A stretch of 32,273 bases of DNA, from positions 1-32,273 of the forward strand of contig JAVVFP010000001.1 in NCBI GenBank assembly GCA_032250495.1. Reading direction: 5' to 3'. Source of the DNA: Bacteroidota bacterium (GTDB lineage: Bacteria > Bacteroidota > Ignavibacteria > SZUA-365). Positions within the stretch are counted from its first letter, which is position 1, and each line of letters starts with the position of its first letter. The notes beneath the pieces were generated by a model. The model made no database searches, was not told the origin of the DNA, and was given only the letters and a program-made list of their open reading frames with translations. A program made the translations under genes and the position numbers. Below, piece after piece: positions 7,093-32,242 of this stretch.

Positions 7093-7126
7093 ACCCCGCG
7101 GCTGCTTGCTGTCGCGGGGTTTTTTC
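7093..7126 (+). terminator. rho-independent terminator after the FadL-like gene
   Basis: An 8-bp GC stem, accccgcg (7093-7100) with cgcggggt (7113-7120), encloses a 12-nt loop and is followed by a T6 run. Confidence 0.8.
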
Positions 7127-11815: not shown

Positions 11816-11854
11816 ATGATGTCGGCCGGGGAGAAATCAGTTACTGGATGAGTA

Positions 11855-12202
11855 TCAGTCGTCTTTCACGCGCGTGACCGGGGCATCTCCCCAGAGCCGT
11901 TCGATGTCGTAGTACGCGCGGGTTTTCGGCGTGAAGACGTGGACGACCACATCGACGAAGTCGAGAAGAACCCATTGGAGATTCTCGAATCCTTCCTTGC
12001 GCCACACCTTGGATCCGCGTTCGCGCGTCCCGTCGACCACGGCATCAGCAATCGCCTTCACCTGCGTATCCGATTCACCGCTGCAGATCACAAAAAAATT
12101 TGTCACGTCCGATAAGCCGGTCAAATCCAGCACCAGCACATCCTGGGCTTTCTTTGTCAATGTCAGTTCCGCCGCATGGCGGGCGAGTTCTTTTGCTTCC
12201 AC
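11855..12202 (-). CDS. rsfS: ribosome silencing factor RsfS (iojap family)
   Basis: The 115-aa product carries LVLDL...S.VTNFFVICSG.S..QVKAIAD and W.LLDF.DVVVHVF....R.YY.IE.LW, the characteristic RsfS/iojap pattern. Confidence 0.9.
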   Translation of the reverse strand: MEAKELARHAAELTLTKKAQDVLVLDLTGLSDVTNFFVICSGESDTQVKAIADAVVDGTRERGSKVWRKEGFENLQWVLLDFVDVVVHVFTPKTRAYYDIERLWGDAPVTRVKDD

Positions 12203-12223
12203 AGCGATCCTGTTTCGTGAGCG

Positions 12224-12697
12224 TTATTCCGAGGGCCTGAGTTTCTCGTAGTCGCGTCCTATGACCACGGAAACGTTCAAATAATAATCGGGATTTATCT
12301 GCTGTACGATGTTGCTTTCATCTATGCCCAGCGCATAGGCGACTTTTCGGGCTGCGGCGAGATCGCCGGTACGGTCGATGACGAGCGATTGCTCGACGTC
12401 GAAGGTCTTGTAATTTGAAGACTGCACGACATCAAAATTGCGCTTGCGCAGAAAATCCGTGAAATCCTGCGCGATGCCTGAAACGCCGCAGCCATTGAGC
12501 ACATCCAGCTGAATGATCTCGCCGGAAGCATCCCCCTTGTTCGCGTTCTCCGTCTTCCAGTCCACCGGCTTGTTCACGATGGAATTCGTGATGAATGAAT
12601 ACAGAAGGAAAAAGACGACGACGCTCAGAAGCGCGATGAGAATATTGAGAAAGAGGCTTTTCGGACTCAGTTGCTTTTTCTTGTTGACCCTTGTCAT
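12224..12697 (-). CDS. membrane-anchored LytR_C domain protein
   Basis: A TM segment (LNILIALLSVVVFFLLYSFI) is followed by VLNG.G.SG.A......L....F.V......N......S.V.., as in the LytR cell-envelope-related C-terminal domain. I prefer the start at MTRVNKKK (12697), because the longer ORF (to 12775) would overlap the upstream gene. Confidence 0.7.
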   Translation of the reverse strand: MTRVNKKKQLSPKSLFLNILIALLSVVVFFLLYSFITNSIVNKPVDWKTENANKGDASGEIIQLDVLNGCGVSGIAQDFTDFLRKRNFDVVQSSNYKTFDVEQSLVIDRTGDLAAARKVAYALGIDESNIVQQINPDYYLNVSVVIGRDYEKLRPSE

Positions 12698-12761
12698 ACC
12701 CAAATATACGAAAAAAAGCCGAGCACAAGACCCGGCTTCCATCTCTGTCGTCAATCGTTCC

Positions 12762-13277
12762 CTACCATTCGTCATCCCCGAAGGACGGGAAAAGTCCCAC
12801 GCTGTTGTACATCCCGTACCGACCGTAGCCGCCGTCGTACGGGTTGTACGTCCCGTAGGGATAGGCGCGGTACTGAAGGCTGATTTTCATATCCTTGCGC
12901 GGCTCATAATCTATGCTTGCGCGGCGGAGAAAGACGCCGGAAATGTCGTTCTTGAACATCTGGCTCGCAGAACCGAAGGGAGAAAACATCATCGATATGT
13001 CGGCACGAACGGAAAGTGGCTCAGAAATCCGGTAACGCAGACTGTTCGTGTACATGGAAACACCGAGCCCCTGATCTCCCATCATTCCGTAACTCAAAGA
13101 AAGGCTGTGGCGCATCTGAAGGTTCTCCGGGTGGAAAAAACCCAGAATGGCGCCACCGCTCTCCTGGTAGACACCTTCGGCCACCGAAGGTCTGCGTGGC
13201 TCCTCGCCGCGAAACTGTGCCGGGAGCAGCATCGGGAAGAGGAGAAGCAGGAATAGTGGAGGGATAATGCGCTTCAT
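12762..13277 (-). CDS. hypothetical small secreted protein
   Basis: The internal Met at 13277 gives a clean signal peptide (MKRIIPPLFLLLLFPMLLPAQ). The Gly/Tyr-rich C-terminus is YPYGTYNPYDGGYGRYGMY. No family was recognised. Confidence 0.55.
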   Translation of the reverse strand: MKRIIPPLFLLLLFPMLLPAQFRGEEPRRPSVAEGVYQESGGAILGFFHPENLQMRHSLSLSYGMMGDQGLGVSMYTNSLRYRISEPLSVRADISMMFSPFGSASQMFKNDISGVFLRRASIDYEPRKDMKISLQYRAYPYGTYNPYDGGYGRYGMYNSVGLFPSFGDDEW

Positions 13278-13486
13278 GGAAAACCATCTTTGTCCAGAAA
13301 AACAGTACTGAATTCTACGCAGCCGGGTGATAAAAAACAAGTCACACAGGCGTCACACGCGCACGCGCGCAGGCGACAAACGCCAGGCACTGCACGGCAG
13401 AAAAAACTTCGAAAAATTATTCCACCGTAAGTCTTTACGTTGCGTGTACTTTGAAAAAATCAAGTCCCGAACGAAATATTTTCATA

Positions 13487-13515
13487 TTGAAATTCACTTC
13501 CGCGGTCTCTATACT
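13487..13515 (+). promoter_or_regulatory. candidate sigma70-type promoter upstream of dnaA
   Basis: TTGAAA (13487-13492), an exact 17-nt spacer and TATACT (13510-13515) are read directly from the sequence. A perfect DnaA box lies about 28 nt downstream of the -10 element. It is unknown whether this organism uses E. coli-type -35/-10 elements. Confidence 0.35.
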
Positions 13516-13542
13516 AGTCCACATCCACAGAGCGTTTTTCAT

Positions 13543-13551
13543 TGTGGATAA
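13543..13551 (-). promoter_or_regulatory. perfect DnaA box (TGTGGATAA, the reverse complement of TTATCCACA) upstream of dnaA
   Basis: This is an exact 9-mer match to the consensus. Degenerate boxes lie nearby: acatccaca (13521-13529) and atatccata (about 13573-13581). Confidence 0.7.
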
Positions 13552-13789
13552 GTTGTGAGTAACACCCGTTGATATCCATACACGGCGTCGCATCCGGTTC
13601 CTGTCGGCCACATTCCCGCCGCGTAACCACGAGACACCTCTGTCTATTTTTTTCTAAGACACGTTAAACAAAGGATTTAGCGCGATACGCGCCGAATTCT
13701 GTGGGGTGTTGTGTTTTCTCTCCGGAAACGGCCGATTCGTGTCAATAATAATGACTCCTCATCTGAAATCTGTGAATAACTCCTTGCCC

Positions 13790-15217
13790 ATGAACGTCCT
13801 CACCGAGACTCCCGCGGTCACTGCCTGGAAAGACTGCCTCGAATTCGTCAAACCGCAGCTCAAACCACTGACGTTCAAAACCTGGTTCGAACCCATTATT
13901 CCGACAAGCCTCGAAGGGGGGCTCCTCACCGTGGAGGTTCCCAGCACATACTTCTACGAGTGGCTCGAGGAGCATTATTTCGACCTCATCCAGGCTGCAC
14001 TTTTCGACGTCCTGGGTCAGGACGCGAAGCTGCAGTACGCGGTGAAAGTTCCGCGAGACGATGGTGCATATTACACGCTGGAACACAACCCTTACCCCGT
14101 GGGCGGAGACGGGCAGCCGGAGAAGACGAACGGCGGCATGCGTTCATATGTGCAGCAGCCCCAGTTGAAGCGGGAAGAGCCGTTCATCACCAATCTCAAC
14201 CCTAAATTCACCTTCGAGAGTTTCATCCGCGGGGACGGCAACCAGTTCGCGCGTGCGGCTGCGCTCAATGTCGCGAACAACGCCGGGGAAACCGCTTTCA
14301 ACCCTCTGGTGCTCTATGGAGGAGTCGGGCTGGGAAAAACGCATCTCATTCAGGCCATCGGCAACTACGTCTCAATGAACAATCCCCGCAAGCGCGTCTA
14401 TTATGTCAGCAGCGAGAAATTCACCATTGATTTCGTGGAAGCGATAGAGAAGAACAACACGATAGATTTTTCCAACTTCTACCGAAGCATGGATGTTCTC
14501 ATCGTCGACGACATCCAGTTTTTTTCCGGAAAGGAGCGCACGCAGGATACATTTTTTCACACGTTCAACACCCTGCACCAGCTCAAGAAGCAGATAATCC
14601 TCTCTTCCGATCGTCCGCCGAAAGATCTTGTCGGACTCGACGAGCGCCTCATCTCCCGTTTCCAGTGCGGATTGACGGTCGATGTGCAGCCACCGGATCT
14701 CGAAACCCGCATTGCCATCCTGAGAAAAAAGGCGGAAGGGGACCACATCGATATTCCACAGGATGTCATCGAGTTCATCGCCTCGAACGTAAAATCCAAT
14801 ATCCGCGAACTCGAGGGCTGTTACATAGGACTGATCGCCCGGCATACGCTGGAACAATGCGAGCTTGACGTAGCCCTGGCGGAAAAAGTGCTCAGGAACG
14901 TCATCGATTCAGAGAAAAAGGATATCACCGTCGAGCAGATCCAGAAAATGGTGGCCGATCACTTCAAGATTTCAGAGAATTCGCTGCGCGCCAAAACCCG
15001 GAAGCAGGAAATTGTGCTTCCGCGCCAGGTCGCGATGTTCCTTTCAAAAAATCTGACGCGTGCTTCTCTCAAGACAATAGGCCTTCATTTCGGTGGCCGC
15101 GATCACAGCACCATCATCCATGCGTACAAGACAATTGAAAAAGCAATGGAGCAGGATGACAGTCTGCGTTCTCACGTAGAGCACCTGGAAAAGCAGATAT
15201 CCTACATATCGCGCTGA
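13790..15217 (+). CDS. dnaA: chromosomal replication initiator protein DnaA
   Basis: The match includes Walker A (GGVGLGKTHL), Walker B (LIVDDIQF), sensor motifs and the C-terminal DNA-binding HTH (..PRQVAMFLSK.LT..SL..IG..FGGRDHSTIIHAYK.I). I prefer the start at MNVLTE.. (13790, 475 aa). Upstream in-frame starts at 13751 and 13706 are possible. Confidence 0.95.
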   Translation: MNVLTETPAVTAWKDCLEFVKPQLKPLTFKTWFEPIIPTSLEGGLLTVEVPSTYFYEWLEEHYFDLIQAALFDVLGQDAKLQYAVKVPRDDGAYYTLEHNPYPVGGDGQPEKTNGGMRSYVQQPQLKREEPFITNLNPKFTFESFIRGDGNQFARAAALNVANNAGETAFNPLVLYGGVGLGKTHLIQAIGNYVSMNNPRKRVYYVSSEKFTIDFVEAIEKNNTIDFSNFYRSMDVLIVDDIQFFSGKERTQDTFFHTFNTLHQLKKQIILSSDRPPKDLVGLDERLISRFQCGLTVDVQPPDLETRIAILRKKAEGDHIDIPQDVIEFIASNVKSNIRELEGCYIGLIARHTLEQCELDVALAEKVLRNVIDSEKKDITVEQIQKMVADHFKISENSLRAKTRKQEIVLPRQVAMFLSKNLTRASLKTIGLHFGGRDHSTIIHAYKTIEKAMEQDDSLRSHVEHLEKQISYISR

Positions 15218-15504: not shown

Positions 15505-17880
15505 GTGGATATGAGACCGCTGCTCGAGAAAACGGAAAACATCCTGTCTGTCAAGGAACTGTGGAAAACCTGTGACGGAACGGGAGTCCTCTGTCTGTGT
15601 GTCTCCGGAAGTGTGGCGCGGGGAGAGCACACGGAGCATTCCGATACGGATTTTCTGCTGCTGCACGAGGAAGGTAATAGCGCGGCAGCGCGGGCTCAGG
15701 AAGTGATACGACGCATGCACGTGGATCTGGACCATGTCAGCGTCGTCAGCCGTTCTCTTGAGCATTGCCGTGCGATGATGCAGGAAGACATGCGCTCCTG
15801 GGTAGCACAACTGGACGCGAAATTCGTAACAGGGAGCATTTCTCTGTTTGAAGCGTTCAGAGAGGATATGTGCAGACAGGCAGAGCAGTCGGGCGAGAAG
15901 TTGCTCACGCGTCTTGATGACCTCACACGTGAGAGGCACGTGCAGTACGGGGAAACGCTTGCGCTCCTGGAACCGAACATCAAGAACAGCGCGGGAGCAC
16001 TGCGCGACATTCACACCCTGTATTACGTGGCGCTTCTCAGCATGCACCGTGAGTTCCCATGCAGCGAAGGTCGGACATGGCCGTCGGTAGCGGACATGCT
16101 TTCATCGCTGCAGTTGCAGAAGCAGCGGCGCGAACAACTGCTGCTCGCCTATAGTTTCCTGCTTTCCGTCCGCGCTGCGATGCATGCCTGCAGTGGACAC
16201 CTGCACGACACCCTGGATTTCGACCTTCAGAGATCAGTGGCTGCGCAGCTCGGCTACGGCAATGAGACGGACAAAAGAGGTGTTGAAAAATTCATGCGCG
16301 ACTACTATCGCCATGCACACACCGTTCACCTGGCACTGCAGCTTGTTTTTTCCGATAGGAGGCAGGGGCAGGGTGACAGCAGAGTGGATGCAGTCCGGGA
16401 GTACTCGCAGGAAAGTGCTGCGGAAGAAATAATGGAGGTGTTTCTTGCGTCCTGCAGGGAAAGAAAACACGTGGATATCAGTCTCGTACGGATTATCGAT
16501 GTGAGAGAGGATATGGATTTTTCTTCCCGCATATGCCTGACACTGTTCGATGATATTCTGCATGAGCGTCAGCATGTATACCGGACACTCTCCCGCATGC
16601 ACGAGATGCGCATTCTGGGGAGGATATTTCCTGAATTCCAGGCGCTGACCCACTTTTTCCAGCACAACATCTATCACTTTTTCACTGCGGATGAACACAC
16701 GCTTCGCTGCATACGCACCTGCGAATATTTGCGGGAGAAGGAAGAACATGTGTCCATGGTTCTGCGGGAAATAGAAGATATTTCTGTTCTCTATTATGGG
16801 CTCCTGCTGCACGACATAGCGAAACCGCTCGATATTCAACGCCACGAGATAGCAGGCGCGGACATCACGGATGAAATACTCCGCCGTTTCTGCCGCAGCG
16901 ATATAAGCGAAGACGTTCGTTTCCTTGTACGTGAGCACCTGAGCATGGAGCAGCTGGCCTTTCGAAGGAATTTCAAGGACAGGGCTACGCTCTCTCCCTT
17001 CGTCGCACGCGTGGAAACATTGCCGAGACTGCAGCTTCTCTACGTGCTGACCTACGCGGACATGTCGGCGCTGAATCCCGGCGTGCTGACAGAATGGAAA
17101 AAAGCGCTGCTTGCGGAATTGTACGAGGAGGCCCGCATGCTTCTTCTCCCGTCCGGGAGGGAAGAGGAGGTGGCAGGACACGGAAACTCGACGGTGGAAC
17201 CGGTTTCGAGTATGGATCATCATGGTTTTCAAACAGCCGTGCAGGATATTCTCGATGGGGAACTCATGCGCATGCATGTCACGCATCATCGCGCGTACTC
17301 CGAAGTAACCGTCTTCTGTGTCGATCGTCCCCAACTGCTTTCCCGCCTTTCCGCGGCGTTTTTCGGCGCGGATACCTCCATCGTCGACGCGGTGATCGAA
17401 ACGAGAAATGAAGTCGTCATCGACATGTTCCGCGTGGTGGATATCATCAGCGGAAAACACCTCTCCGCAGAACAGACCCGTGCGCTCCGCAGCCATGTGC
17501 GTTCCGTCTGTTCCGGTGAACTGGACGTGGAAGCACTCTATCGTTCGTGCAGGAACAAGTGGAAACGGCGCCTGCGGAAACTGCCGAAGGACAACGTAAA
17601 GACGGCGGTGGAATACATTTCGCACACGGATGACGACGGCCGGCAGCTTACAATCATCGAAGTGTACGCCCCGGATACTTTCGGACTGCTCTATCGGCTC
17701 GCGGCGGAAATATCCGTATTTGGATTGAACGTCGTATTTGCCAAAATTGCGACACGGGTGGACGGCGTGGTCGACAGTTTCTATATCGTGGACGCCGAGG
17801 GAAAGCCGCTCGTGGACGCCGGTCGAAAGGATATGCTCCGTTCACGCCTCCTGGATAGAATTTTGGAATTGACGCAATAA
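15505..17880 (+). CDS. glnD: [protein-PII] uridylyltransferase / uridylyl-removing enzyme, GlnD-like (NTase + HD + 2 ACT)
   Basis: The NTase motif is GSVARGEHTEHSDTDFLLL. The GlnD-specific LEPNIKNSAGALRDIHTLYY and the HD domain (..LLLHDIAKP..) are present. Two C-terminal ACT-like modules are visible (TVFCVDRPQLLSRLSAAF.. and IEVYAPDTFGLLYRLAAEIS..). The start is GTG 15505 or ATG 15511. Confidence 0.85.
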   Translation: MDMRPLLEKTENILSVKELWKTCDGTGVLCLCVSGSVARGEHTEHSDTDFLLLHEEGNSAAARAQEVIRRMHVDLDHVSVVSRSLEHCRAMMQEDMRSWVAQLDAKFVTGSISLFEAFREDMCRQAEQSGEKLLTRLDDLTRERHVQYGETLALLEPNIKNSAGALRDIHTLYYVALLSMHREFPCSEGRTWPSVADMLSSLQLQKQRREQLLLAYSFLLSVRAAMHACSGHLHDTLDFDLQRSVAAQLGYGNETDKRGVEKFMRDYYRHAHTVHLALQLVFSDRRQGQGDSRVDAVREYSQESAAEEIMEVFLASCRERKHVDISLVRIIDVREDMDFSSRICLTLFDDILHERQHVYRTLSRMHEMRILGRIFPEFQALTHFFQHNIYHFFTADEHTLRCIRTCEYLREKEEHVSMVLREIEDISVLYYGLLLHDIAKPLDIQRHEIAGADITDEILRRFCRSDISEDVRFLVREHLSMEQLAFRRNFKDRATLSPFVARVETLPRLQLLYVLTYADMSALNPGVLTEWKKALLAELYEEARMLLLPSGREEEVAGHGNSTVEPVSSMDHHGFQTAVQDILDGELMRMHVTHHRAYSEVTVFCVDRPQLLSRLSAAFFGADTSIVDAVIETRNEVVIDMFRVVDIISGKHLSAEQTRALRSHVRSVCSGELDVEALYRSCRNKWKRRLRKLPKDNVKTAVEYISHTDDDGRQLTIIEVYAPDTFGLLYRLAAEISVFGLNVVFAKIATRVDGVVDSFYIVDAEGKPLVDAGRKDMLRSRLLDRILELTQ

Positions 17881-18837: not shown

Positions 18838-20946
18838 ATGAGTGCAGAAGAAAAGGAAAAGGGACAATCGTTTCTTTTCGAAGAATTTGAGGCAGTCACC
18901 AAGAAGAGGTGGCTGGATCTGGTAAAGGAAGATTTGAAGGGGGCGGACTTCGACAGGAAACTCGTCTGGCAGAGCTATGAGGGATTTTCCGTTCAGCCAA
19001 TGTATTTCCGTGAGGATATGGAGAAGCTCGCGCACCTCGGCACACTTCCGGGTTTCACGCCATATCTGCGTGGCAGCCGGAAGGCGGGCAGCGGCGCGCA
19101 GACCTGGTCCATTTCCCAGACACACGACGCCTCGGAACATGATACGCTCCTTGAGGAAATCCGCCTTGCTGTCACGGGGGGACAGCGGCGCGTGGGACTG
19201 CGCTTTCACCCGGTGCTGCGTGAGGCGCAGGATGTTCAATCCATGCACAACGCGCCCGCCGGTGGTGTCTGGATCACTTCCTCGGACGCATTCGGCGCCC
19301 TGTGCGCGTCCATGCCCGCAGTGGATGGAATAGACCTTTACGCGGGCCTGTCCTCTCCCATGTTCACCGCAGCGGCGGCGGACGCGAAGCTGAAAGGAAT
19401 GCATGCGCATTACGATCCGGTTACCATGCTCGCGACATCATCTTCTCTGCCCTGGACGCTGGAAACCGCCTTCCGTCTGATGGCCGATGGTATTCGTTTC
19501 GCTACGGACGAGCTTCCTGACAGCACGGTGGTCGGGATCAGCGGCGAGCCATGGCATAACGCCGGTGGCAGCGCTGTGGAGGAAATAGCCTGTGTGCTCG
19601 CCACGGGAGTCGAATATCTCCAGCAGCTGCAGCAGCGTGGCGTGGAAGTGAAACGTGCCTCGCGATTCATGCGCTTCACTTTTCCGGTGGGCAGCACGTT
19701 CTTCATGGAAATAGCTAAACTCCGCGCCATACGCGCGCTCTGGACGCGCATTGTCGAGGAATTCGAAGCGGGTGCGAGCGCCGCTGCTCCCATGCACATG
19801 CATGTCTGCGGATCTCGCTGGAGCAAAACCGTGTACGATCCCTATGTCAACATGCTGCGCAGTACGGTGCAGGCGATGGCAGGCGCGATTGGTGGAGCAG
19901 AGAGCGTGGATATTGCACCGTTTGACGACGTTGCCGGAAATCCAGGTGTGTTTTCGCGTCGCATCGCGCGCAACGTGCAGATAATACTACAGGAAGAGGC
20001 GCGTCTCTCGCAGGTCAGTGATGCCGCGGCCGGTTCCTATTACGTCGAGCAGCTGACCGATTCCATCATGCGTCATGCGTGGAGTATGTTCCGCGAAATC
20101 GAAACACGGGGCGGAATAGTTTCCGCGCTGAAGGACGGTTACATCCAGCAGCGCCTCGGAGATACTGCGGACAGGAAGCGGGAGAATATATCCCGTCGTC
20201 GCGACGTCATCGTCGGCACAAACAAGTACCCGAATCTCTCCGAGAAAGCGCTTCCCGCCGCCGGCAAGGCTCCGACCGCGAACACGACTCTCCAGGAACG
20301 ATACCATTCGTTACTTGAAGAACGTGGCGATGCTGCGGCCGCACGGGCGGCGTTCATTGCCGCTGTCGAGGATGAGAACGCGAACCTCGTGGCCTCCATG
20401 CGCGACGCGCTCGCCGCTGGCATGACCATCCCCGAACTGCACGCGGTACTGCGCGCAGCGGAAACGGATACTTTCACCGTCGAAGCGATACCGGTCTTCC
20501 GTGCAGCCGAGCAGTTCGAGGCGATGCGCGCGGCCGTGGAACGGTGTGAGAAAAAACCGCGCGTGTTTCTGGCCACGTACGGAGCAGTCAACTGGAGCCG
20601 TGCACGCGCAACCTTCGCTTCCGGTTTCTTCGGTGCGACCGGCATGGAAATCGTGGACAATCTCGGTTTTCCATCAGCCACGGCGGCCGCAGAGGCCGCG
20701 ATCGAGCAAGACGCCGACATCGTCGTTGCCTGCAGTGAGGACGAAATGTACCGGGAGACGATTCCGGATATCATGGATTCGCTCCGCGCCTCGCCACGAC
20801 CGATGCTGCTCATCGTTGCCGGTAATCCCGTCGACGACCTGTCCGCACTGCGTGAGGCGGGCGTCCATGCGTTCATTCATGTCAAGGCCGATGCCGGTTC
20901 CATTCTTGCCGGCATTATCCAGACACTCGGAATCGAAATTCAATAA
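18838..20946 (+). CDS. mutA: methylmalonyl-CoA mutase small (beta) subunit
   Basis: The 702-aa product has a mutase-family core (F.M.....[23 protein letters not shown]). Its C-terminal Rossmann-like domain lacks the DxHxxG cobalamin-ligand motif. It lies directly upstream of the large subunit, the classic mutA-mutB arrangement. Confidence 0.85.
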
Positions 20947-20963
20947 GGCAGGAAGAAACAGAA

Positions 20964-23135
<2,172 letters not shown>

Positions 23136-23308: not shown

Positions 23309-26300
23309 ATGAAAACGATTTCCCTCGTCCGCGTACTGTTTGCAGCCATGCTTCTGGCCGGTGTCTCACCGACGTTGCCGGCACAGACTATTTCATACAT
23401 GCTGCCGGATATCGGCAGTCCGGGAATGAACACGCTCGTCGAGTTCATCGCACCGCATGACGCGTTCGGGAATTTCGGGAGCGATGGACTGTATCTGAAT
23501 AATCCCGGGGATGCGCTGCGTCTACGCTGCGCCGATGCGAACGACACAGGTCTCGTCGTCATCGGTCCCTTCATGGTTTCATGGGACGGGCGCCTGGTAT
23601 CCGCGCAGGTATTTGTGCGGCCCGACGCTGATCCCCCGAGCAGCAACTGGCAGTCCGTCGGAGCGCAGTTCCAGGTACCGATCGAGTTCGTACGCAACGG
23701 CACCCCGGGAAACAGCGAGATGTTCTACGTGGTGCGTCCGCAGCCGGCCATCGTCAAATCGGGGGACGGACTGCTCGGTTCGGGCGGGACCTGGGGACTG
23801 CGATCGCCGCGCGGTGCGATGATCGTCGACAGCATGGTGCTCCGTGGCAGCAGCTACGGTGTGTCGACCGCGGACTGCGATGCCGGCACGCCCGGGAACC
23901 AAGGATATCTTCCGGTCACCATCATTTCACGCGGTCCCGTACGCATGGAGAGCAGCGCGACTCTCTCTCTCGACGCCATGGGAAAGCATGCCGGTCCGGG
24001 TGGCGGCGGTGGCGGTGGAAACTTCTGTGACTTCACCGGTGACGGAACGGACGGGGGTGATGGTTTTACCGGTGGTGGACGTGGCGGACGCAACCGCGCA
24101 GGCAACCCTTTCGGCAGTGACGAGTACCGGAATCCCGGTACGGGTTCGGGTCCACCCGTGGGCAGTACGGGCGGCAGTCTCAACGGCGTCCCCGGTGGCA
24201 ACTCTCCCGCATACGAGGCGTCCGGCGGGGGAACGGGCCATCCCTTCGGCAGTTCCGGCGAAGGATGTATCAGCGGATCGGGCTGCAATCCCCCGGGCGG
24301 ATACGGCGGCGGCAGCGGTCAGCAGCAGACTCTGGCCGGTGGCGGCGGTGGATATTCCACCGAAGGTTTCTCCACGAAGAACGGGAATGGCGGCAAGGTG
24401 CACGGCAACGACGCCATCATACCGCTCGCCGGAGGATCCGGCGCCGGCGGGGGCAATCCCCAGCTGGGTTTCGCATGTTCCGGTGACGGCGGCGGCGGTG
24501 GCGGTGCGCTGAAACTTTCTGCACCCGTGATGGAGGCCAAACTTTTCACCGCCTACGGTGCGCCGGGTGCCAATGCCGCCAGTGGAGACGGGGGGTCGGG
24601 TTCGGGAGGAGCCATACACCTTGGATCCAAGCTATCTTCGTCAGCAATTCAGCCCAGGGCCGGCGGTGGTTTCGGACCTGGTGGTTTCGGCGGGGCGGGA
24701 CGCATACGCATGGACGGTCCGATCACGGTGCCCCCTCCCGGTCTGGCGGTGGTTGAAAGCATGTTCACCGGTCCGTCCACGGATACCTCGCAGTACGTAC
24801 CGCGCAGCTTCACGCTGACGGGGACGGGCAACGGCGAGGACATTCACCTGTTCATGAAATCGGAGCGCGAACCCTGGACGGAAATAGCCGTCATCAGCGG
24901 GTACGGCAGCAACTGGTCGCACAGCATAACACTTCCACCGGTCGAAGGATATTATTACCTGGCGGCGCTGCAGTCTTTTCCCACGCCGTCCTCCGATCCC
25001 TGGGTGGCGCGTCCCGCGTACGTTCCATCGCAGTCGGCTGCGAATATTTTCATTTTCCGTCCGGTCCCTGCCATCGCCGCCGATCCCGCGCGCAGTCTTC
25101 CCGGGATACGCTGCGAAGACAGCAGCATAGACACGGTGACGGTAGGCAATACCGGTGAGGGAATGCTGCGCATACCGGACGCGCGTTTCCTCGGTGGGAG
25201 CAGCGGTTTCACCTTGCTGCAACCGACGGTTTTTCCGATCGACATCGCCCCGGGTGAAACACGTTCGTTCGTCGTTCGTTATGACCGCGTACCGGGGAGC
25301 AGGGGAGTGCAGCGCGACACGCTGCAGATCCTGAGCAACAGTCCGGGAGCGAGTCCCTACAACATCGTTTTCAGCGTCGACGTCGACGTGGCATCATTCG
25401 CGTTCGACGAAAGCGTCCTGGCATTTCCCGATCTTCTGCTGTGCGAAGGCACAAGCGTGGACACGAGCGTTGTGCTCACCAATACGGGAACCGTGCCGCT
25501 TCTTCTGCTGCAGCCCACACTGGACAATTCCTCGTTTACTCTTCTGCAACCGGCACCGGCCGCATTTCCCCTGTCGCTCCCACCGGATTCTTCGCTGCGG
25601 GTGCAGCTGCGTGTCACGCATACGGGAACGGGATCCCTCGCCGGACTGCTGGAAGTTCGGACGGATGCCAACGGATGCAGCCTGAACCGGCAGGTCATCC
25701 TTTCCGCGAACGCGCGGGACGCGGTGCTGACCGCCACGGACCTCGCGCCATTTCCGACGCTTCGCTGTGCCGGGGAATTTGCGGATACGACGCTCATACT
25801 GCGCAACGATGGCGACGTCCCCGTCACGGTAACGGCACTGACTTCGTCCCTTCCGGCATTCCAGGTGCTGTCCCCCGCGGTACCGGTCACCCTGGGCGTA
25901 GGCCAGCAGGTCAGCGTGCGGCTGCGCTTTGTCCCTTCCTTTGCCGGTGCGTTCCAGGGACTGCTGACCGTGGAAAGCATGCCGTGCGCACAGCTGCTTA
26001 CCCGTGTGCTCGATGGGCGTCGCGATTCGCTCGGTCTGCGTGCGGATGCGGTGGATTTCGGCGTGCGCCGGGCCGCCACACTGCCGGTAACCGAGACCAC
26101 CGTGCTGCGTAATACGGGCAGCATCCCCGTCACCGTGACAGCCGCGGCTTTCGCCCCGCCGTTTCGTGTGAGTGCCGGATTGCCGGTGACGCTGCAGCCT
26201 GGCGACAGCACGGAAATAGTGCTGCAGTTTGACGACAACGGTATGGACGGTCCATACGCGGGACGCATCGCGCTGGAACATGCGCCGTCCTGTGACAGCG

Positions 26301-27001
26301 TATTCGTCGATGTGCAGGGTCGGCGTGCCACGGCGCGCGTGGTGCTGCGGACGGACACCGTCGTCGCCGCTCCATCGGACGTTATCGAATTGCCCATCTA
26401 CCTGAGCAACGCGGAAAACCTGCAGCTGTTCGGCGCGACATCCATTACCGTGGATCTCCGGTACAGCGCAAGCGTGATGTCACCGCTGTTCGCGGCCGGG
26501 GGAATCCTGGTCGGCGACGATCGTGTGATCACGCTCGATCTTCCCTTCATCACGGATGAAAACGACGTAGCGCTGCGCCTTCCGTTCATGGTCACACTGG
26601 GACTGCAGGATGAAAGCGTGCTATGGCTCGAGCGCGCGGAAGCGGTGGGCGGTGAACTGACCATCGAAGTCGAACACGGGCGCATCATGCTCACGGAAAT
26701 CTGCCGCGAGGGCGGTGACCGTTTCTTTGACGGATCGGCGTCCGTCGCCCTCAGGCCCAACCGTCCCAATCCCTTCAATCCCGTCACGGAACTGTCCTTC
26801 GACATCATCGAGGCGGCGCGTACACAACTGCTGGTATTCGACATGCTCGGACGCCGCGTCGTGACTCTTGTCGACGACGTCCTGCAGCCGGGCAGTTACA
26901 CCCGCTCCTTCGACGGGTCACGGCTTCCCTCGGGAATGTATATCGCGGTACTGAAGACGGCGACTGTCACCAAGACGCGTCGCATGCTGCTGGCAAAGTA
27001 A
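23309..27001 (+). CDS. large secreted multidomain protein with C-terminal type IX secretion sorting domain
   Basis: The signal peptide is MKTISLVRVLFAAMLLAGVSPTLPAQ. A Gly-rich block spans about 23980-24720. Four tandem modules of about 105 aa span about 25085-26340, each carrying C..(S/F).DT..(V/L)..N(T/D)G..P. The last 80 aa or so (about 26750-26998), NRPNPFNP.TELSF.......LLVFDMLGRRV..L......PG.Y...FDGS.LPSGMY...L......TRRMLLAK, match the T9SS Por_Secre_tail-type CTD pattern. Confidence 0.85.
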   Translation: MKTISLVRVLFAAMLLAGVSPTLPAQTISYMLPDIGSPGMNTLVEFIAPHDAFGNFGSDGLYLNNPGDALRLRCADANDTGLVVIGPFMVSWDGRLVSAQVFVRPDADPPSSNWQSVGAQFQVPIEFVRNGTPGNSEMFYVVRPQPAIVKSGDGLLGSGGTWGLRSPRGAMIVDSMVLRGSSYGVSTADCDAGTPGNQGYLPVTIISRGPVRMESSATLSLDAMGKHAGPGGGGGGGNFCDFTGDGTDGGDGFTGGGRGGRNRAGNPFGSDEYRNPGTGSGPPVGSTGGSLNGVPGGNSPAYEASGGGTGHPFGSSGEGCISGSGCNPPGGYGGGSGQQQTLAGGGGGYSTEGFSTKNGNGGKVHGNDAIIPLAGGSGAGGGNPQLGFACSGDGGGGGGALKLSAPVMEAKLFTAYGAPGANAASGDGGSGSGGAIHLGSKLSSSAIQPRAGGGFGPGGFGGAGRIRMDGPITVPPPGLAVVESMFTGPSTDTSQYVPRSFTLTGTGNGEDIHLFMKSEREPWTEIAVISGYGSNWSHSITLPPVEGYYYLAALQSFPTPSSDPWVARPAYVPSQSAANIFIFRPVPAIAADPARSLPGIRCEDSSIDTVTVGNTGEGMLRIPDARFLGGSSGFTLLQPTVFPIDIAPGETRSFVVRYDRVPGSRGVQRDTLQILSNSPGASPYNIVFSVDVDVASFAFDESVLAFPDLLLCEGTSVDTSVVLTNTGTVPLLLLQPTLDNSSFTLLQPAPAAFPLSLPPDSSLRVQLRVTHTGTGSLAGLLEVRTDANGCSLNRQVILSANARDAVLTATDLAPFPTLRCAGEFADTTLILRNDGDVPVTVTALTSSLPAFQVLSPAVPVTLGVGQQVSVRLRFVPSFAGAFQGLLTVESMPCAQLLTRVLDGRRDSLGLRADAVDFGVRRAATLPVTETTVLRNTGSIPVTVTAAAFAPPFRVSAGLPVTLQPGDSTEIVLQFDDNGMDGPYAGRIALEHAPSCDSVFVDVQGRRATARVVLRTDTVVAAPSDVIELPIYLSNAENLQLFGATSITVDLRYSASVMSPLFAAGGILVGDDRVITLDLPFITDENDVALRLPFMVTLGLQDESVLWLERAEAVGGELTIEVEHGRIMLTEICREGGDRFFDGSASVALRPNRPNPFNPVTELSFDIIEAARTQLLVFDMLGRRVVTLVDDVLQPGSYTRSFDGSRLPSGMYIAVLKTATVTKTRRMLLAK

Positions 27002-27130: not shown

Positions 27131-27217
27131 GCTCGAGTGGCGGAATTGGCAGACGCGCTGGACTCAAAATCCAGTGGGGTAAAACCCGTGCCGGTTCGAT
27201 CCCGGCCTCGAGTACCA
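27131..27217 (+). tRNA. tRNA-Leu (anticodon CAA), class II with long variable arm, CCA encoded
   Basis: I folded the cloverleaf by hand. The acceptor stem is gctcgag with ctcgagt. The D arm is gcg-gaattggcaga-cgc. The anticodon stem ctgga/tccag holds the loop ctCAAaa. The long variable arm is tggggtaaaacccgt and the T arm is gccgg-ttcgatc-ccggc. The discriminator is A, followed by CCA. Confidence 0.9.
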
Positions 27218-27294: not shown

Positions 27295-28170
27295 TCACCG
27301 GGCCCAGCGCACGGAGATCGAACCCACGCCGGACTGAAGGTCGAGCAGGACCTTGCGACTGCTGCTTGAGAAGTTTTCCGTCGCATAGATATTGTCGCTG
27401 CGCCTGACAAAACGGTACATCGATTCAGAGCTCAGCAAGTGGTCACTGGTCATGGCCTTCGCCCCGACGCCTTCCGGTAATGTGATGACCATGGATCCCA
27501 CGCCGACGTCCGACGAGATGCGTGTGCGCGAGGGAAGGGCTCCCGTGCAATCCAGTTTGTAGCTTCCGAGTCCGCCTTCGAATTCAAGCTGCCGGAACCG
27601 CAGATTGCCCAGATGTCTCGTCTGTACGGAGCCGACGCCGGCAGAAATCGACACTTTGTCTATGATCTGCCGATTGGGCCTGTCGACGCTCATTCGCACG
27701 CTGCCCGCGCCCGCATCGAGTCGCAGTCCCTTCACATGCAGTCCGGTGAGATCCAGGGAGGCCCTGCCCGCCCCGAGCGTTACGTCGAACTCTATCGGTA
27801 CACGGTCGTTCATGTGCACATACCACGTGCGCGAGTCTCTGCCCTGCAGCAGGCATGCGAGCGCATTCATGTCTTCAGCGCCCTCCGTATTGATATCGAG
27901 CGTGAGATATCCTATGCCGTCCTCAACATGGTAATCCACCTGAATGTCGGAGGCCTTCGCGTTCTCCCCGTTTTTTTCCCTGATCTGCAACAGCGCGTTT
28001 CCTCGTCCGCGTTTGAGGTACAGCGTGCCAAAACCGCCATTGATCGTGGCGACGACTTCACGCGCACCGTCGAGTGAGACCGTACGTGTGAAAGCCTCCT
28101 GCGCACTGACCGGCAAGGTAAAGAGTGCAGCGAACAGGAAGGCTGTCGAATATTTCAAAAATCCGTTCAT
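27295..28170 (-). CDS. secreted protein with periodic G-x-G-S strands (toastrack / DUF4097-DUF2154-like putative adhesin fold)
   Basis: The signal peptide is MNGFLKYSTAFLFAALFTLPVSAQ. Seven spaced copies of a (hydrophobic)-x-(G/A)G-x-G-(S/T)-(hydrophobic)-x-(hydrophobic) strand motif are visible: INGGFGTLYL, LGAGRASLDL, LDAGAGSVRM, ISAGVGSVQT, FEGGLGSYKL, SDVGVGSMVI and LQSGVGSISV. The family assignment comes from pattern memory only. Confidence 0.5.
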   Translation of the reverse strand: MNGFLKYSTAFLFAALFTLPVSAQEAFTRTVSLDGAREVVATINGGFGTLYLKRGRGNALLQIREKNGENAKASDIQVDYHVEDGIGYLTLDINTEGAEDMNALACLLQGRDSRTWYVHMNDRVPIEFDVTLGAGRASLDLTGLHVKGLRLDAGAGSVRMSVDRPNRQIIDKVSISAGVGSVQTRHLGNLRFRQLEFEGGLGSYKLDCTGALPSRTRISSDVGVGSMVITLPEGVGAKAMTSDHLLSSESMYRFVRRSDNIYATENFSSSSRKVLLDLQSGVGSISVRWAR

Positions 28171-28294: not shown

Positions 28295-29119
28295 ATGTTA
28301 CCTCAACTGGAACTTGACACATCGGCCGTTGCGGAACTTCTTACGGGGTTTGTGCGCAACGAAATACGGCGAACCGGTCTTTCCCGGGCGGTCATCGGAT
28401 TGTCCGGGGGAGTGGATTCTGCCGTGTCCGCTTTCCTGACGGCGAATGCGCTGGGTCCGGAAAACCTCCTGTGCGTGATGATGCCATACAGGACGAGCAG
28501 TGCCGACAGTCTTTCGCACGCAGAGCTTGTTGTCGATCAGCTCGGCATACGAAGTGAAACGGTGGATATCACGACCATGGTGGATTCGCTGGTCACCACA
28601 GATCCGGACATGTCCAGATTGCGCCGGGGAAACATCATGGCGCGCGCACGTATGATCGTGCTCTACGACCGATCCTCCCGTGAAGCGGGACTGGTCGTTG
28701 GTACCGGAAATAAAACCGAGATGCTGCTTGGATACAGCACCTTGTTCGGTGATTCGGCCTGTGCGATCAATCCCCTCGGTGATCTGTACAAAACGCAGGT
28801 ATGGGCTCTCGCGAGGCAGCTCGGCGTTCCGGACGCCATCGTGGACAAGGACCCGAGCGCGGACCTGTGGACAGGGCAGACCGACGAGCAGGAACTCGGT
28901 TTTTCGTATCGCGAAGCGGACGAGATATTGTATTTCATGATTGACGAACGCATGGACGACGAACAGCTGCAGAAGAAGGGTTTCGATGCAGCGCTCGTGG
29001 AGAGTGTCCGCCGCATGGTGCGGCGCAACCAGTTCAAACGCCTGCCGCCCGTGATCGCGAAGGTGGGGTATCGCACGGTGAACGCCGATTTTCGTTACCC
29101 GCGGGACTGGGGAACGTAG
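28295..29119 (+). CDS. nadE: NH3-dependent NAD+ synthetase
   Basis: The PP-loop GLSGGVDSAV is present, together with the NadE core (..RRGNIMARARM..LY.......GLVVGTGNKTE.LLGY.T.FGD.ACAINP.GDLYKTQV..LAR.LG.P). The 274-aa length fits the family. Confidence 0.9.
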   Translation: MLPQLELDTSAVAELLTGFVRNEIRRTGLSRAVIGLSGGVDSAVSAFLTANALGPENLLCVMMPYRTSSADSLSHAELVVDQLGIRSETVDITTMVDSLVTTDPDMSRLRRGNIMARARMIVLYDRSSREAGLVVGTGNKTEMLLGYSTLFGDSACAINPLGDLYKTQVWALARQLGVPDAIVDKDPSADLWTGQTDEQELGFSYREADEILYFMIDERMDDEQLQKKGFDAALVESVRRMVRRNQFKRLPPVIAKVGYRTVNADFRYPRDWGT

Positions 29120-29173: not shown

Positions 29174-31255
29174 GTGGACAAGGATATGTTCGAACGGAAA
29201 ATTGAAGAAACCATTGCCTTCCTTCTGAAGGAAACCATCGCTGATCAGGACAGCATTACTTCCCGGCAGATTTTCGCTTCCGAAATCCCAGAGGCGCTCA
29301 AGCGCATGTTCGAGCAGGACGTCGACATCTGGGTGGTGGAGGAGCGCGCGCGCATGACGCAGTCGCCGCATTTCCGCTATGAGGACAGCGACATCGTCGG
29401 CCTGTTCGAGCAGATCATTCTTCGCGTCCGCGAACACGCCGTTTTCAGCAGGAACGAGTACGTTGAGAGACTGGAGAAGAACGTCAAACTGCTGTTCAAC
29501 TATCTATGCCGTCCCCAGTGGACGTTGCAGAAATACCTGTTCGCGGATCGCGAACATGCCGCGACGGACGACATCGTCGATGGACTGCGGTATTTCTGGA
29601 ACTATGAGTATTACCGCATCATTCTCCAGGAATATTTCAACAAGAAAGATCTGACTGTCATGCAGGCGCGGAAGTTCGGTGAACTGCTCAATCATATCGA
29701 CAGCGAGGTGGTGCGCAATTTCGACAGCCGCAAGCTCGCGCACCTGGCCGAACCGATTTTCACCCTCTTCTCGATCGGTTCGGGATCGGAGGAGAAATTC
29801 GTGCCCGTTGAAGCGCTGTCGATATTTTTCGACGACAAGAATCTGCTCTCCATCGTCGAGCGCCTCGACCGGGAAAAGGAGCTGCGCGAACAGATAACAC
29901 TGCATGACCTGGTCATGGTCATCAGCGAAGTGGATTTCACGATGAGCTTCGATATCTCCGCCATTGTCAACGAGCACGTCCATCAGGCAGGTGTCATGAA
30001 ACCTGAGCGAAACGTTACCGCGGGCGAGGACTTCGAGGTGCCTGAAATTACGGCCCCCGAACACGAGGAAGAGGACAGGCGTGAGATCGGTCACGAGGAT
30101 GGCGATCTCGACTTTGTGATCACCGATGAGGAAGACGCCGTTGTCGAGCAGCATTACGACAGTATTCCGTCGATGGAAGACGATCTTCTCCTGGAAGAAG
30201 ACGCCGTGGATGAAGATGCGTTGGCGACAACCATCGAAGCGGAAGAGCAGTACGCGGCGGAAGATACCGCGGACACCGAAACAGACGATGCGCTGCGCAT
30301 CAGCGACGAGGAATACATCGAGGACGATGATTCGATGCAGGACGATTTCCCTTCCGATGCAGGTGCGTACGGAGAGACCCTTCTCGAGGATAACGAAGAA
30401 TTGCCCGACATGGATGATTACGACTCGACGGTTGAGACAATACTGGATATTGAGCAACAGCTCGAGGAGCAGGACACCATCCCCGACCTGTCCCTCGAGG
30501 GGGAGCAGGAGGATGAAAACGAGGATTACGCGCTGGTCGAAGAGGAGATGCACGACAGTTCCGGTGCGCAGTACGGGGGAAATGCGGGTCACGCCGGTGC
30601 AGGGTCATCTGTGCTCGACGATCTGCCTGATATTTCACTCGAGGAGGAGGAGGACTCGTCACCAGAGCCTGGTGAGGACAACGCAGAACTTGACATCGAC
30701 TGGGAAAAGGAGGCGGAGGACATCCCGGACATGGATCTCGAGGAGACGGCTGACGAAGGAAAAGCCTTGCCCGATGACAGTATTCCGGGGATCTCCCTGG
30801 AGAATGAGGATCAGCTTAAACCCGCGGAGGAATTGCTCGGAGAGCTTGATCTTGATCTCGACGATCTCGACGAAAAAGAGAGTCCGTCTCCGCGCAGGCA
30901 CAACGACATTCCCATCGTGGAAGAAGAAGTGCCTGAGGCGCGGAGCAGCGCCCGCACGGAAGAGCCCACCGACGACGATACCCCCTCGCGCCCCGTGCAG
31001 GAGGTCGTTGCAGAATTTGGTGATCTCAAGCAGCTTATTCCCGCGGGCGACAGAAAAAAATACGTCAAGAAGCTATTCCGGAAGGATGATGAAGCCTTCG
31101 ACCGCGCGATGAACGTGCTGAACGGAAAGGCGACATGGCGCGAGGCCTCCGAATACATTGACGAGCTATTCATCAAGCATGACGTAGACATGTATTCCCG
31201 TCTTGCGGTCAAATTCACCGATGACGTGTATAAGCGTTATCTCAACGAGAAGTAG
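29174..31255 (+). CDS. hypothetical protein: N-terminal globular domain, ~320-aa polyacidic linker with repeated [IL]P-x-hydrophobic-x-L/D-E motifs, basic/helical C-terminal domain
   Basis: A single long ORF has GC-rich third codon positions. The start is GTG 29174 or ATG 29186. The stop TAG at 31253-31255 lies 6 nt before the obg start. No family was recognised. Confidence 0.75.
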   Translation: MDKDMFERKIEETIAFLLKETIADQDSITSRQIFASEIPEALKRMFEQDVDIWVVEERARMTQSPHFRYEDSDIVGLFEQIILRVREHAVFSRNEYVERLEKNVKLLFNYLCRPQWTLQKYLFADREHAATDDIVDGLRYFWNYEYYRIILQEYFNKKDLTVMQARKFGELLNHIDSEVVRNFDSRKLAHLAEPIFTLFSIGSGSEEKFVPVEALSIFFDDKNLLSIVERLDREKELREQITLHDLVMVISEVDFTMSFDISAIVNEHVHQAGVMKPERNVTAGEDFEVPEITAPEHEEEDRREIGHEDGDLDFVITDEEDAVVEQHYDSIPSMEDDLLLEEDAVDEDALATTIEAEEQYAAEDTADTETDDALRISDEEYIEDDDSMQDDFPSDAGAYGETLLEDNEELPDMDDYDSTVETILDIEQQLEEQDTIPDLSLEGEQEDENEDYALVEEEMHDSSGAQYGGNAGHAGAGSSVLDDLPDISLEEEEDSSPEPGEDNAELDIDWEKEAEDIPDMDLEETADEGKALPDDSIPGISLENEDQLKPAEELLGELDLDLDDLDEKESPSPRRHNDIPIVEEEVPEARSSARTEEPTDDDTPSRPVQEVVAEFGDLKQLIPAGDRKKYVKKLFRKDDEAFDRAMNVLNGKATWREASEYIDELFIKHDVDMYSRLAVKFTDDVYKRYLNEK

Positions 31256-31261
31256 CATAAC

Positions 31262-32242
31262 GTGTTTGTAGATCAAGTAAGCATTTCGGTTCGCTCCGGA
31301 AAGGGTGGCGCGGGGTGCGTGAGCTTTCGGCGCGAAAAATACGTGCCCAAGGGCGGCCCGGACGGTGGAAACGGCGGCCGAGGCGGGGATGTGATTCTCG
31401 TGGCGAACGGCCAACTGCACACCCTGCTCGATCATCGCTACAAGCGCGAGTACGAGGCGCAGAGCGGCGCGCCCGGCGAACCCTCGCGGCGTAGCGGCAA
31501 GTCGGGTCGCGACCTGCGCATTGAACTTCCCGTCGGAACGGTTGTCCGTGATGAGCGCAGTGGTGCGTTGATCGCCGACCTCGTCGAGAACGGACAGGAA
31601 TTCGTCGTCCTCCGGGGTGGCATCGGGGGCAGGGGAAACGCCGAATTCGCCACGGCAACAAATCAGGCGCCACGCCGCTCCGAACCCGGAAGGGAGGGGG
31701 GAGAGGTGCAGCTGCAGCTCGAACTCAAACTCATAGCTGATGTCGGCCTGGTCGGTTTCCCGAATGCAGGGAAATCCACGCTGATCTCCGTCATCTCCGC
31801 CGCACAGCCGAAGATTGCGAACTATCCGTTCACTACGCTCGAACCGAATCTGGGTATCGTGCGCTACAGGGAATACGACAGTTTCACGGTGGCAGATCTC
31901 CCTGGACTGATAGAGGGCGCGCACGAGGGAAAGGGACTCGGCCATCAGTTTCTCCAGCACGTCGAAAGGACACGCGTGCTCGCGATGCTCATCGACTGCA
32001 TGTCGGAGGATTACCCGGCGGATATCGAGGTGCTGCGCAACGAGCTGTCCTCCTACAGCAACGAGTTGGCGGTGAAACCCTGGTTCATCGCGCTGTCCAA
32101 AACGGACACGGCGGATGAAGAAATACGCGAGCGCATGGACGAGCTGCCTTCACGTTACGATGTCCCCGTCGTGGCATTTTCTTCCGTCAGCCAGGAGGGA
32201 ATCAACGCACTCAAGGATTTGATGTGGCGCATGATCACCTGA
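31262..32242 (+). CDS. obg: GTPase Obg/CgtA
   Basis: The Obg-fold N-terminus is FVDQV.I.V.SG.GG.G.VSFRREKYVPKGGPDGG.GG.GGDV. The G domain carries G1 GFPNAGKST, G3 DLPGLIEGA and G4 LSKTD. The start codon is GTG. Confidence 0.95.
   Translation: MFVDQVSISVRSGKGGAGCVSFRREKYVPKGGPDGGNGGRGGDVILVANGQLHTLLDHRYKREYEAQSGAPGEPSRRSGKSGRDLRIELPVGTVVRDERSGALIADLVENGQEFVVLRGGIGGRGNAEFATATNQAPRRSEPGREGGEVQLQLELKLIADVGLVGFPNAGKSTLISVISAAQPKIANYPFTTLEPNLGIVRYREYDSFTVADLPGLIEGAHEGKGLGHQFLQHVERTRVLAMLIDCMSEDYPADIEVLRNELSSYSNELAVKPWFIALSKTDTADEEIRERMDELPSRYDVPVVAFSSVSQEGINALKDLMWRMIT

Follow-up and report, generated by a model that had tools for sequence, protein, structure and literature searches.

A family of two-domain proteins with a polyacidic linker, encoded directly upstream of obg in the Ignavibacteria/Kapabacteria group

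Obg and the gene directly upstream of it

Obg is a universal and essential bacterial GTPase, whose regulation and many reported roles (50S assembly, ribosome anti-association, the stringent response, replication and persistence) are poorly explained. Elsewhere obg has operon neighbours such as yhbE in E. coli and spo0B in Bacillus. Acidic disordered segments are a feature of the polar hubs PopZ and HubP/FimV, in which such a spacer lies between a folded interaction module and a small helical C-terminal domain; this intrinsically disordered region (IDR) varies in length and sequence by lineage. Acidic-hydrophobic short linear motifs are known from the C-terminal tip of SSB (DDDIPF) and from the C-terminal peptide of FtsZ (D-I-P-x-F-L). 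According to two publications, Obg is a 50S assembly and anti-association factor (PMC4028186, PMC9545696), two ribosomal protein genes are co-expressed with obgE in E. coli (PMC9545696; see also PMC4028186), and the C-terminal domain of Obg is variable, that of the E. coli protein being intrinsically disordered (PMC9545696). Here we describe a gene for an acidic protein, both referred to as X, which lies upstream of obg in a 32,273-nucleotide stretch of a Bacteroidota bacterium (contig JAVVFP010000001.1, positions 1 to 32,273 of the forward strand; hereafter the window). X consists of an N-terminal domain (N-domain), a polyacidic linker and a C-terminal domain (C-domain), and represents an undescribed family that is restricted mainly to the Ignavibacteria/Kapabacteria group and is coupled to obg.

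The list of open reading frames (ORFs) of the window contains a frame of 693 residues at 29174..31255 on the forward strand, the TAG stop codon of which ends at 31255. The first-pass annotation, made from the DNA sequence alone, had placed the start at the GTG at 29174. Since the homologues all begin with MFE... and the database copy of the same protein has 689 residues, X almost certainly starts four codons further downstream, at the ATG at 29186, and the gene then occupies 29186..31255 (+; 689 residues plus stop, checked by translation). The distance of 6 nt to obg had been given correctly: the spacer (31256..31261, +) separates the TAG from the GTG start codon of obg at 31262. A scan of the window revealed no terminator-like site between X and obg, and a search for an RNA element or terminator there likewise returned none. 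The obg gene itself (31262..32242, +) encodes 326 residues with the Obg fold and the G domain and without a C-terminal domain (Pfam GTP1_OBG, 1.5e-60; NCBIfam ObgE). Neither X nor the Obg of the window matches the Pfam model of the Obg C-terminal domain (OCT, PF09269), the latter protein matching the GTP1_OBG and G-domain models only. Upstream of X lies nadE, encoding NAD synthase (28295-29119; Pfam 1.4e-76). Two long ORFs that cross the acidic region in other frames, of 362 residues (29504-30592, -) and 328 residues (30126-31112, +), are not genes but result from the GAN-rich codon bias of X.

Genome scans, for which subfamily alignments were used instead of the too divergent family-wide alignment, yielded 129 X loci. 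At 119 of the 122 loci with a complete X, obg is found downstream on the same strand; at the other three the contig ends within ~250 nt of the X stop codon. The pairing recurs in over a hundred species of the Ignavibacteria/Kapabacteria group. The median distance from the stop codon of X to the start of obg is 5 nt, with 99 gaps of at most 20 nt and 24 one-base overlaps. An apparent gap of -990 at one locus (L006, from a Chlorobiota-labelled metagenome-assembled genome, MAG) is a frameshift artefact. The frameshift lies inside the C-domain at about 7100-7115, from where the open frame runs on into obg; it is probably an assembly error, and possibly the mark of a pseudogene.

The link to obg is therefore much stronger than could be seen from the window alone, and the upstream neighbours vary by clade: nadE and the gene of a 291-residue secreted protein in the window clade, sdhC-sdhA-sdhB in the Melioribacteraceae and the gene of a 1,200-residue TPR protein in another clade. 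A gene for a FecCD-like permease often follows obg (87 loci). To judge from this gene order, X and obg have stayed together as a two-gene unit through the rearrangement of all their surroundings, while X diverged to 20-30% identity, and the pairing is tight, probably with translational coupling. The presence of obg at nearly all loci, the short median gap and the changing upstream genes together fit co-expression and a functional tie to Obg.

An exhaustive profile search seeded by the window protein returned 897 cluster representatives at E<=1e-3 (567 at E<=1e-10), i.e. about 900 clusters counted at 50% identity. This exhaustive search was required, as a word-indexed protein search with the N-domain alone yielded one fragment only. 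Both domains are present in 154 of the 184 collected proteins, most of the others being short or truncated and taken as fragments on account of their length, and nearly all complete representatives have the layout N-domain/linker/C-domain. Conservation of the terminal domains beyond this genome, on which the first-pass annotation had made its proposal depend, was thus found. A search for the C-domain in other architectures returned only fragments of the same family. The sole apparent stand-alone C-domain protein (P0189) is a split gene: in a Melioribacteraceae-like MAG (L130, 2702-4369) X is divided into ORFs of 431 and 122 residues, right after sdhA and sdhB.

The N-domain identity to the loci L001-L006 of the window clade is 42-89%, in MAGs labelled Ignavibacteria, Bacteroidetes or Chlorobiota. 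Other subfamilies were found in Candidatus Kapaibacterium/Kapabacteria, in the Melioribacteraceae and Ignavibacteriaceae, and in further MAGs labelled 'Bacteroidota', and across clades the identity of X falls to ~20-30%. Cultured members of the Melioribacteraceae/Ignavibacteriaceae group are Stygiobacter electus, Rosettibacter primus and Melioribacter sp. Ez-97, among others. The names Alphaproteobacteria, Armatimonadota and Acidobacteriota also occur on a few records, but these are automatic MAG labels that could not be confirmed. A divergent low-GC branch (L022, 3998-5961; L023, 3432-4502) combines the N-domain with an acidic tail rich in Asp, Asn and Glu. Judged by eye, the next gene in L022 resembles that of a sigma-70/ECF-type sigma factor.

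That X belongs to no recognisable known family had been noted before, and this was borne out by the databases searched. There was no significant match in Pfam for the X of the window or for 72 family members, none in NCBIfam or among the PADLOC anti-phage defence models for the X of the window, and none among PDB sequences with either the single sequence or a 148-sequence profile. Foldseek, run against PDB with the structural models of X and of a linkerless homologue (P0089), returned nothing at E<=0.001, and a Foldseek search of BFVD also returned nothing. With PADLOC, P0089 gave one chance-level match to AbiEi (E 0.004, 14.7 bits). We regard the family and its gene pairing as outside the known kinds, as none of the comparisons with known families places X within one and none of the domain libraries searched here contains it.

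The members are all named 'hypothetical protein', with the exception of the homologue of Stygiobacter electus (A0AAE3P493 / WP_321536396.1), which carries the automatic UniRef label 'TerB-C domain-containing protein'. Taken at face value, this name would make X a stress-response protein of the TerB-N/TerB-C type (PF13208 / PF15615), which we consider highly improbable. Such proteins (bioRxiv 10.1101/2021.07.23.453527) likewise have a variable middle between an N-module and a C-module, the latter with conserved acidic residues, and share with X a large number of acidic residues. However, hmmscan against Pfam-A gave no TerB_N, TerB or TerB_C match for the X of the window at E<=1, nor in any of the 72 scanned members, i.e. 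in the Stygiobacter protein and nine other Ignavibacteriales homologues at E<=1 and in 62 further members at E<=0.01. The gene context also differs: the operon described for TerB-N/TerB-C, with an AAA+ ATPase and an SF-II helicase, is absent from the X loci, where nadE, sdhCAB or the TPR gene is found upstream, the FecCD-like permease gene downstream, and obg is the partner gene. TerB-C has also been assigned to acidic or coiled-coil proteins such as SepT, where it overlaps an SMC call (PMC10653889), which would fit a composition-driven label. The lead from the UniRef name was not reproduced by Pfam and the label is probably driven by composition.

Domain architecture and the acidic linker

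A three-part layout, with a globular N-terminal part, an acidic middle and a helical C-terminal part, had been read from the protein sequence and is supported by the AlphaFold2 model of X that was based on a 148-sequence family alignment. In this model residues 1-267 and 601-689 are helical, with values of the predicted local distance difference test (pLDDT) of 90-98, and residues 268-600 are mostly below 50. The N-domain (29186..29986, +; residues 1-267; pLDDT 90-98) is all-helical and contains six helix/short-strand/helix units, which are EF-hand-like. Nearly invariant positions in the family are E3, N105, R109, P110, F119, Y140, Y142, D172, P207, D217 and K218. The C-domain (30986..31252, +; residues 601-689; pLDDT 92-98) forms a helical bundle and is the best-conserved part of X, near-identical within the window clade. 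Its nearly invariant positions are F631, W651, A654 and F677, and its family consensus reads DLxxxI..K..KK.F..D......A...LN....W.EAS..IDE.F....VDPYS..A..FTD....RY.

The linkerless homologue P0089 (354 residues, Ignavibacteriales MBI5020355.1) was predicted to have the same structural elements, with a mean pLDDT of 93.5. The predicted template modelling (pTM) scores, 0.51 for the X of the window and 0.74 for P0089, are too ambiguous to say whether the N- and C-domains pack together. As both domains exceed a pLDDT of 90 in each of these two independent models, X is predicted to be a real folded protein. Two conserved helical modules, an N-domain of ~265 residues and a C-domain of ~80 residues, are shown by these models, in which they are confidently folded, as the core of the family.

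The C-domain had been described as Lys/Arg-rich and helical-looking; the latter holds, but the domain is charge-balanced at +1, and across the family it is slightly acidic (median -6). Neither the N- nor the C-domain is basic, and an acidic tail that autoinhibits basic nucleic-acid-binding domains was for that reason rejected. The polar and aromatic residues among the near-invariant ones (N105, R109, D172, D217, K218 and W651) suggest a specific binding surface.

The linker (29987..30985, +; residues 268-600), polyacidic by composition and disordered by pLDDT, contains 125 D+E and 13 K+R in 333 residues, a net charge of -112. It had been called overwhelmingly Asp/Glu; these residues do dominate, at 38% (125/333), which is short of overwhelming. 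Across the family the linker measures between 9 and 670 residues and is as a rule acidic (20-45% D+E); its net charge has a median of -64 and reaches -216. The charge is conserved across the family and the sequence is not. In some lineages the linker has shrunk to 9-22 residues.

Within the linker of the window protein, all seven copies of an I/L-P motif listed in the first-pass annotation were found in place, at residues 331, 410, 436, 484, 517, 537 and 579 of the 693-residue frame. On the forward strand these are IPSMEDD (30164..30184), LPDMDDY (30401..30421), IPDLSLE (30479..30499), LPDISLE (30623..30643), IPDMDLE (30722..30742), IPGISLE (30782..30802) and IPIVEEE (30908..30928). The core [IL]P[DGSI][ILMV] thus occurs seven times in a 325-residue acidic stretch, against a mean of 0.17 in 20,000 composition-preserving shuffles, none of which reached seven. 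No tandem repeat was detected at the DNA level beneath the motif copies in the X gene of the window, and such repeats were accordingly rejected as the origin of the motifs.

Conservation within the clade was assessed with 28 sequences at 45-80% identity. Several of the I/L-P copies are only moderately conserved, among them the first, second and fourth; the third is ~70% identical and ~80-90% conserved by residue class, and in the seventh the DIPI core is conserved. Conservation at least equal to that of the I/L-P motifs was found in three islands that had been missed earlier: LDFVITDEE (30107..30133, +; 90-100% conserved), IDWEKEAE just before the fifth motif copy (30695..30718, +; 70-100% identity per residue, 90-100% by residue class), where AlphaFold2 predicts a weak helix, and KPAEELLGELDLD (30818..30856, +; most positions 90-100% conserved). 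The conserved islands of the clade linkers are MKPERxVTAGxDFxVP, LDFVITDEE, DTIPDLSLE, IDWEKEAEDIPDMDLEE, KPAEELLGELDLD and NDIPIVEE, and the stretches between them are unconserved acidic filler.

Enrichment of the I/L-P-x-hydrophobic motifs was observed only in the window clade, with 3-8 copies in L001-L006 versus ~1 expected. The motifs are therefore genuine short linear motifs under selection that constitute a clade-specific addition, and the core function of the family must then reside in the two folded domains. As the linkers of some lineages shrink to 9-22 residues, motif multivalency cannot be the core function of the family. The multivalent docking scaffold that had been proposed from the motif copies stands in so far as the motifs are kept in relatives at 45-80% identity; it fails for the other subfamilies, in which they are not enriched, and for the very short linkers, and can apply only to the linker of the window clade. 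By eye, other subfamilies seem to have islands of their own: three Melioribacteraceae linkers (L086, L100 and L109) apparently share (I/V)T(Y/I)K(P/Q)....I.V followed by acidic residues (ITYKP....I.V for example), an island with no relation to the I/L-P motifs of the window.

In the copies DDLPDISLE, EDIPDMDLE and NDIPIVEEE an acidic run is followed by I/L-P and a hydrophobic residue, as in the SSB tip and the FtsZ peptide. In contrast to these, the copies in X are multiple and internal (residues 331-585 of 693), are followed by acidic residues and have no free C-terminus; an SSB-like motif is absent from the extreme C-terminus of X.

The order of parts in X, a folded end, an acidic IDR and a small conserved helical C-domain, also fits a cytoplasmic scaffold or hub like PopZ or HubP, in which an acidic disordered spacer would connect a client-binding end to a C-terminal domain for oligomerisation. 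Such a hub would merely share its operon and growth-rate regulation with obg, without functional contact. That each clade has its own linker motifs is as expected of interchangeable client docking sites, and obg operons elsewhere do contain functionally unrelated genes. We nevertheless regard this explanation as rather doubtful. Adjacency at 119 of 122 loci over deep divergence, with every other neighbour changing, would be unusual for mere co-regulation, and some members have practically no linker. Moreover, no homology or fold similarity of X to PopZ or HubP/FimV was detected and X has no Pfam match; unlike these hubs it lacks a membrane anchor, and its constant partner is obg rather than a polarity gene.

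A possible role beside Obg

Instead of a hub unrelated to Obg, we tentatively favour, at somewhat less than even confidence, the possibility that X is made together with Obg and acts with it, late 50S assembly or Obg stress signalling being the most plausible settings. The N- and C-domains would be the acting part, most likely through protein binding, as their helix-loop-helix pairs resemble EF-hand peptide-binding modules without the Ca2+ loops. The target would probably be Obg itself or the late 50S precursor on which Obg acts. The polyanionic linker would work through charge and reach, and could either tether basic ribosomal proteins or basic surfaces in the manner of RNA or serve as an entropic spacer. 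In the window clade it may have gained, with its approximately ten conserved short acidic-hydrophobic motifs (the seven I/L-P copies included), extra and possibly multivalent docking sites.

The likeness to EF-hand proteins lies in the repeated units of helix, short beta-bridge and helix, arranged in pairs, in the models of X. The top Foldseek matches in PDB for both models were the calmodulin-like domain of CDPK, troponin C, obelin, NCS-1/frequenin and calmodulin, at E-values of 0.06-2 and TM scores of 0.1-0.3, which are not significant. All of these are Ca2+-binding EF-hand proteins, and together with linker net charges of up to -216 they could point to a divalent-cation (Mg2+/Ca2+) buffer or sensor, in which EF-hand-like modules and a calsequestrin-like polyacidic tract supply cations locally for the GTPase or for ribosome assembly. 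This appears quite improbable. Besides the insignificant fold matches (E>=0.06), the canonical 12-residue Ca2+ loop (PROSITE PS00018) is absent from the X of the window and was found in only 2 of 322 family sequences, in one of them within the linker, and the loops of the family consensus are without DxDxDG ligands. Furthermore, the members with linkers of 9-22 residues have no polyacidic tract. The Pfam EF-hand models had no match in the X of the window or in the scanned family members, and an identity as a Ca2+-binding EF-hand protein was rejected because the loop pattern is absent. The fold of X has no solved relative; its description as EF-hand-like helix-loop-helix pairs that do not bind Ca2+ is, in its EF-hand part, weak.

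In favour of a role beside Obg, all 110 complete Obg proteins encoded next to X are without the variable C-terminal domain carried by other Obg proteins; a median of 3.5 residues follows their G domain. The C-terminal domain of E. coli ObgE is a variable and partly disordered module on the Obg core (PMC9545696), and X is comparable to it in being a largely disordered accessory next to an Obg without such a domain. Unlike that domain, X is a separate and much larger protein with two folded domains, and it has no Pfam similarity to any Obg domain. That X functionally replaces the Obg C-terminal domain would be pure speculation by analogy. Compensation in trans by the X linker for an absent acidic Obg tail was rejected, since Obg tails, wherever they occur, are basic, and linker and tail lengths correlate only weakly. 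At seven loci of one clade (L025, L029, L033, L035, L036, L039 and L049) the Obg tail is 19-42 residues long and Lys/Arg-rich, and the linker of the neighbouring X is shorter, at 59-141 residues; at the other loci Obg stops directly behind the G domain.

A number of observations weigh against a role of X together with Obg, or against the parts of the mechanism proposed for it. Conserved adjacency can reflect co-regulation alone, and the divergent branch of L022 and L023 has neither the C-domain nor an obg neighbour. Many bacteria have a two-domain Obg without any X, so that replacement of the Obg C-terminal domain is not required. One Obg clade carries basic C-terminal tails of 10-42 residues, and the correlation between X linker length and Obg tail length is weak (rho -0.22). 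Direct binding of RNA by the folded domains is unlikely, because neither is basic, and the resemblance of these domains to EF-hand proteins suffers from the insignificance of the fold matches mentioned above. Internal repeats were not detected by profile-profile comparison (hhalign probabilities <16%), and an internal duplication of helix-loop-helix pairs was rejected on the same result. The I/L-P motifs are at chance level in the Kapabacteria, the Melioribacteraceae and the other subfamilies. Finally, in the databases searched here no structure or family match gave X an activity.

A more specific form of the role beside Obg, which we regard as unlikely, is that X is a dedicated, lineage-specific Obg cofactor. 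Its EF-hand-like domains would act as a clamp on the two-domain Obg or on the 50S precursor, and its linker would be an rRNA-mimicking tether or, in the window clade, a multivalent and possibly condensate-forming tether that gathers basic large-subunit proteins, X thereby supplying in trans a module equivalent to the Obg C-terminal domain. If true, X would be without precedent as a protein cofactor built specifically around bacterial Obg. More generally, its retention beside obg across two bacterial classes makes X a concrete candidate partner dedicated to Obg, and one that is approachable in cultured Melioribacter, Ignavibacterium, Stygiobacter and Rosettibacter. The family of ~900 clusters is not described in any domain database, and its linkers of 9 to 670 residues provide a natural series for studying what polyacidic disorder adds to a fixed pair of domains.

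Other genes of the window

The 291-residue protein upstream of nadE (27295-28170, -) has a signal-peptide-like N-terminus and no Pfam match. It is syntenic upstream of nadE in L001, L002, L003, L005 and L006, with identities of 36-81%. The gene at 23309-27001 (+) encodes a protein of 1,230 residues with a type IX secretion C-terminal sorting domain (Por_Secre_tail), several Ig-like domains of the ASH/HYDIN/DUF1573 type and a long Gly-rich N-terminal half. Between these two genes lies a tRNA-Leu (CAA) gene (27131-27217, +), identified by both ARAGORN and Rfam; the ORFs listed there are translation artefacts of the tRNA.

In the more distant part of the window, dnaA is found at 13706-15217 (+; Bac_DnaA, 2.3e-68, with DnaA_N and DnaA_C), with flanking sequence at 11815-13706. 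It lies in the part of the window with the lowest GC content (0.50-0.53 versus ~0.59), and on the basis of this low GC content a replication origin may be located near dnaA. A gene for a GlnD-like uridylyltransferase with HD and ACT domains (15505-17880, +) precedes two adjacent methylmalonyl-CoA mutase genes (18838-23135, +), one with and one without the B12-binding domain, which together represent an ordinary metabolic context.

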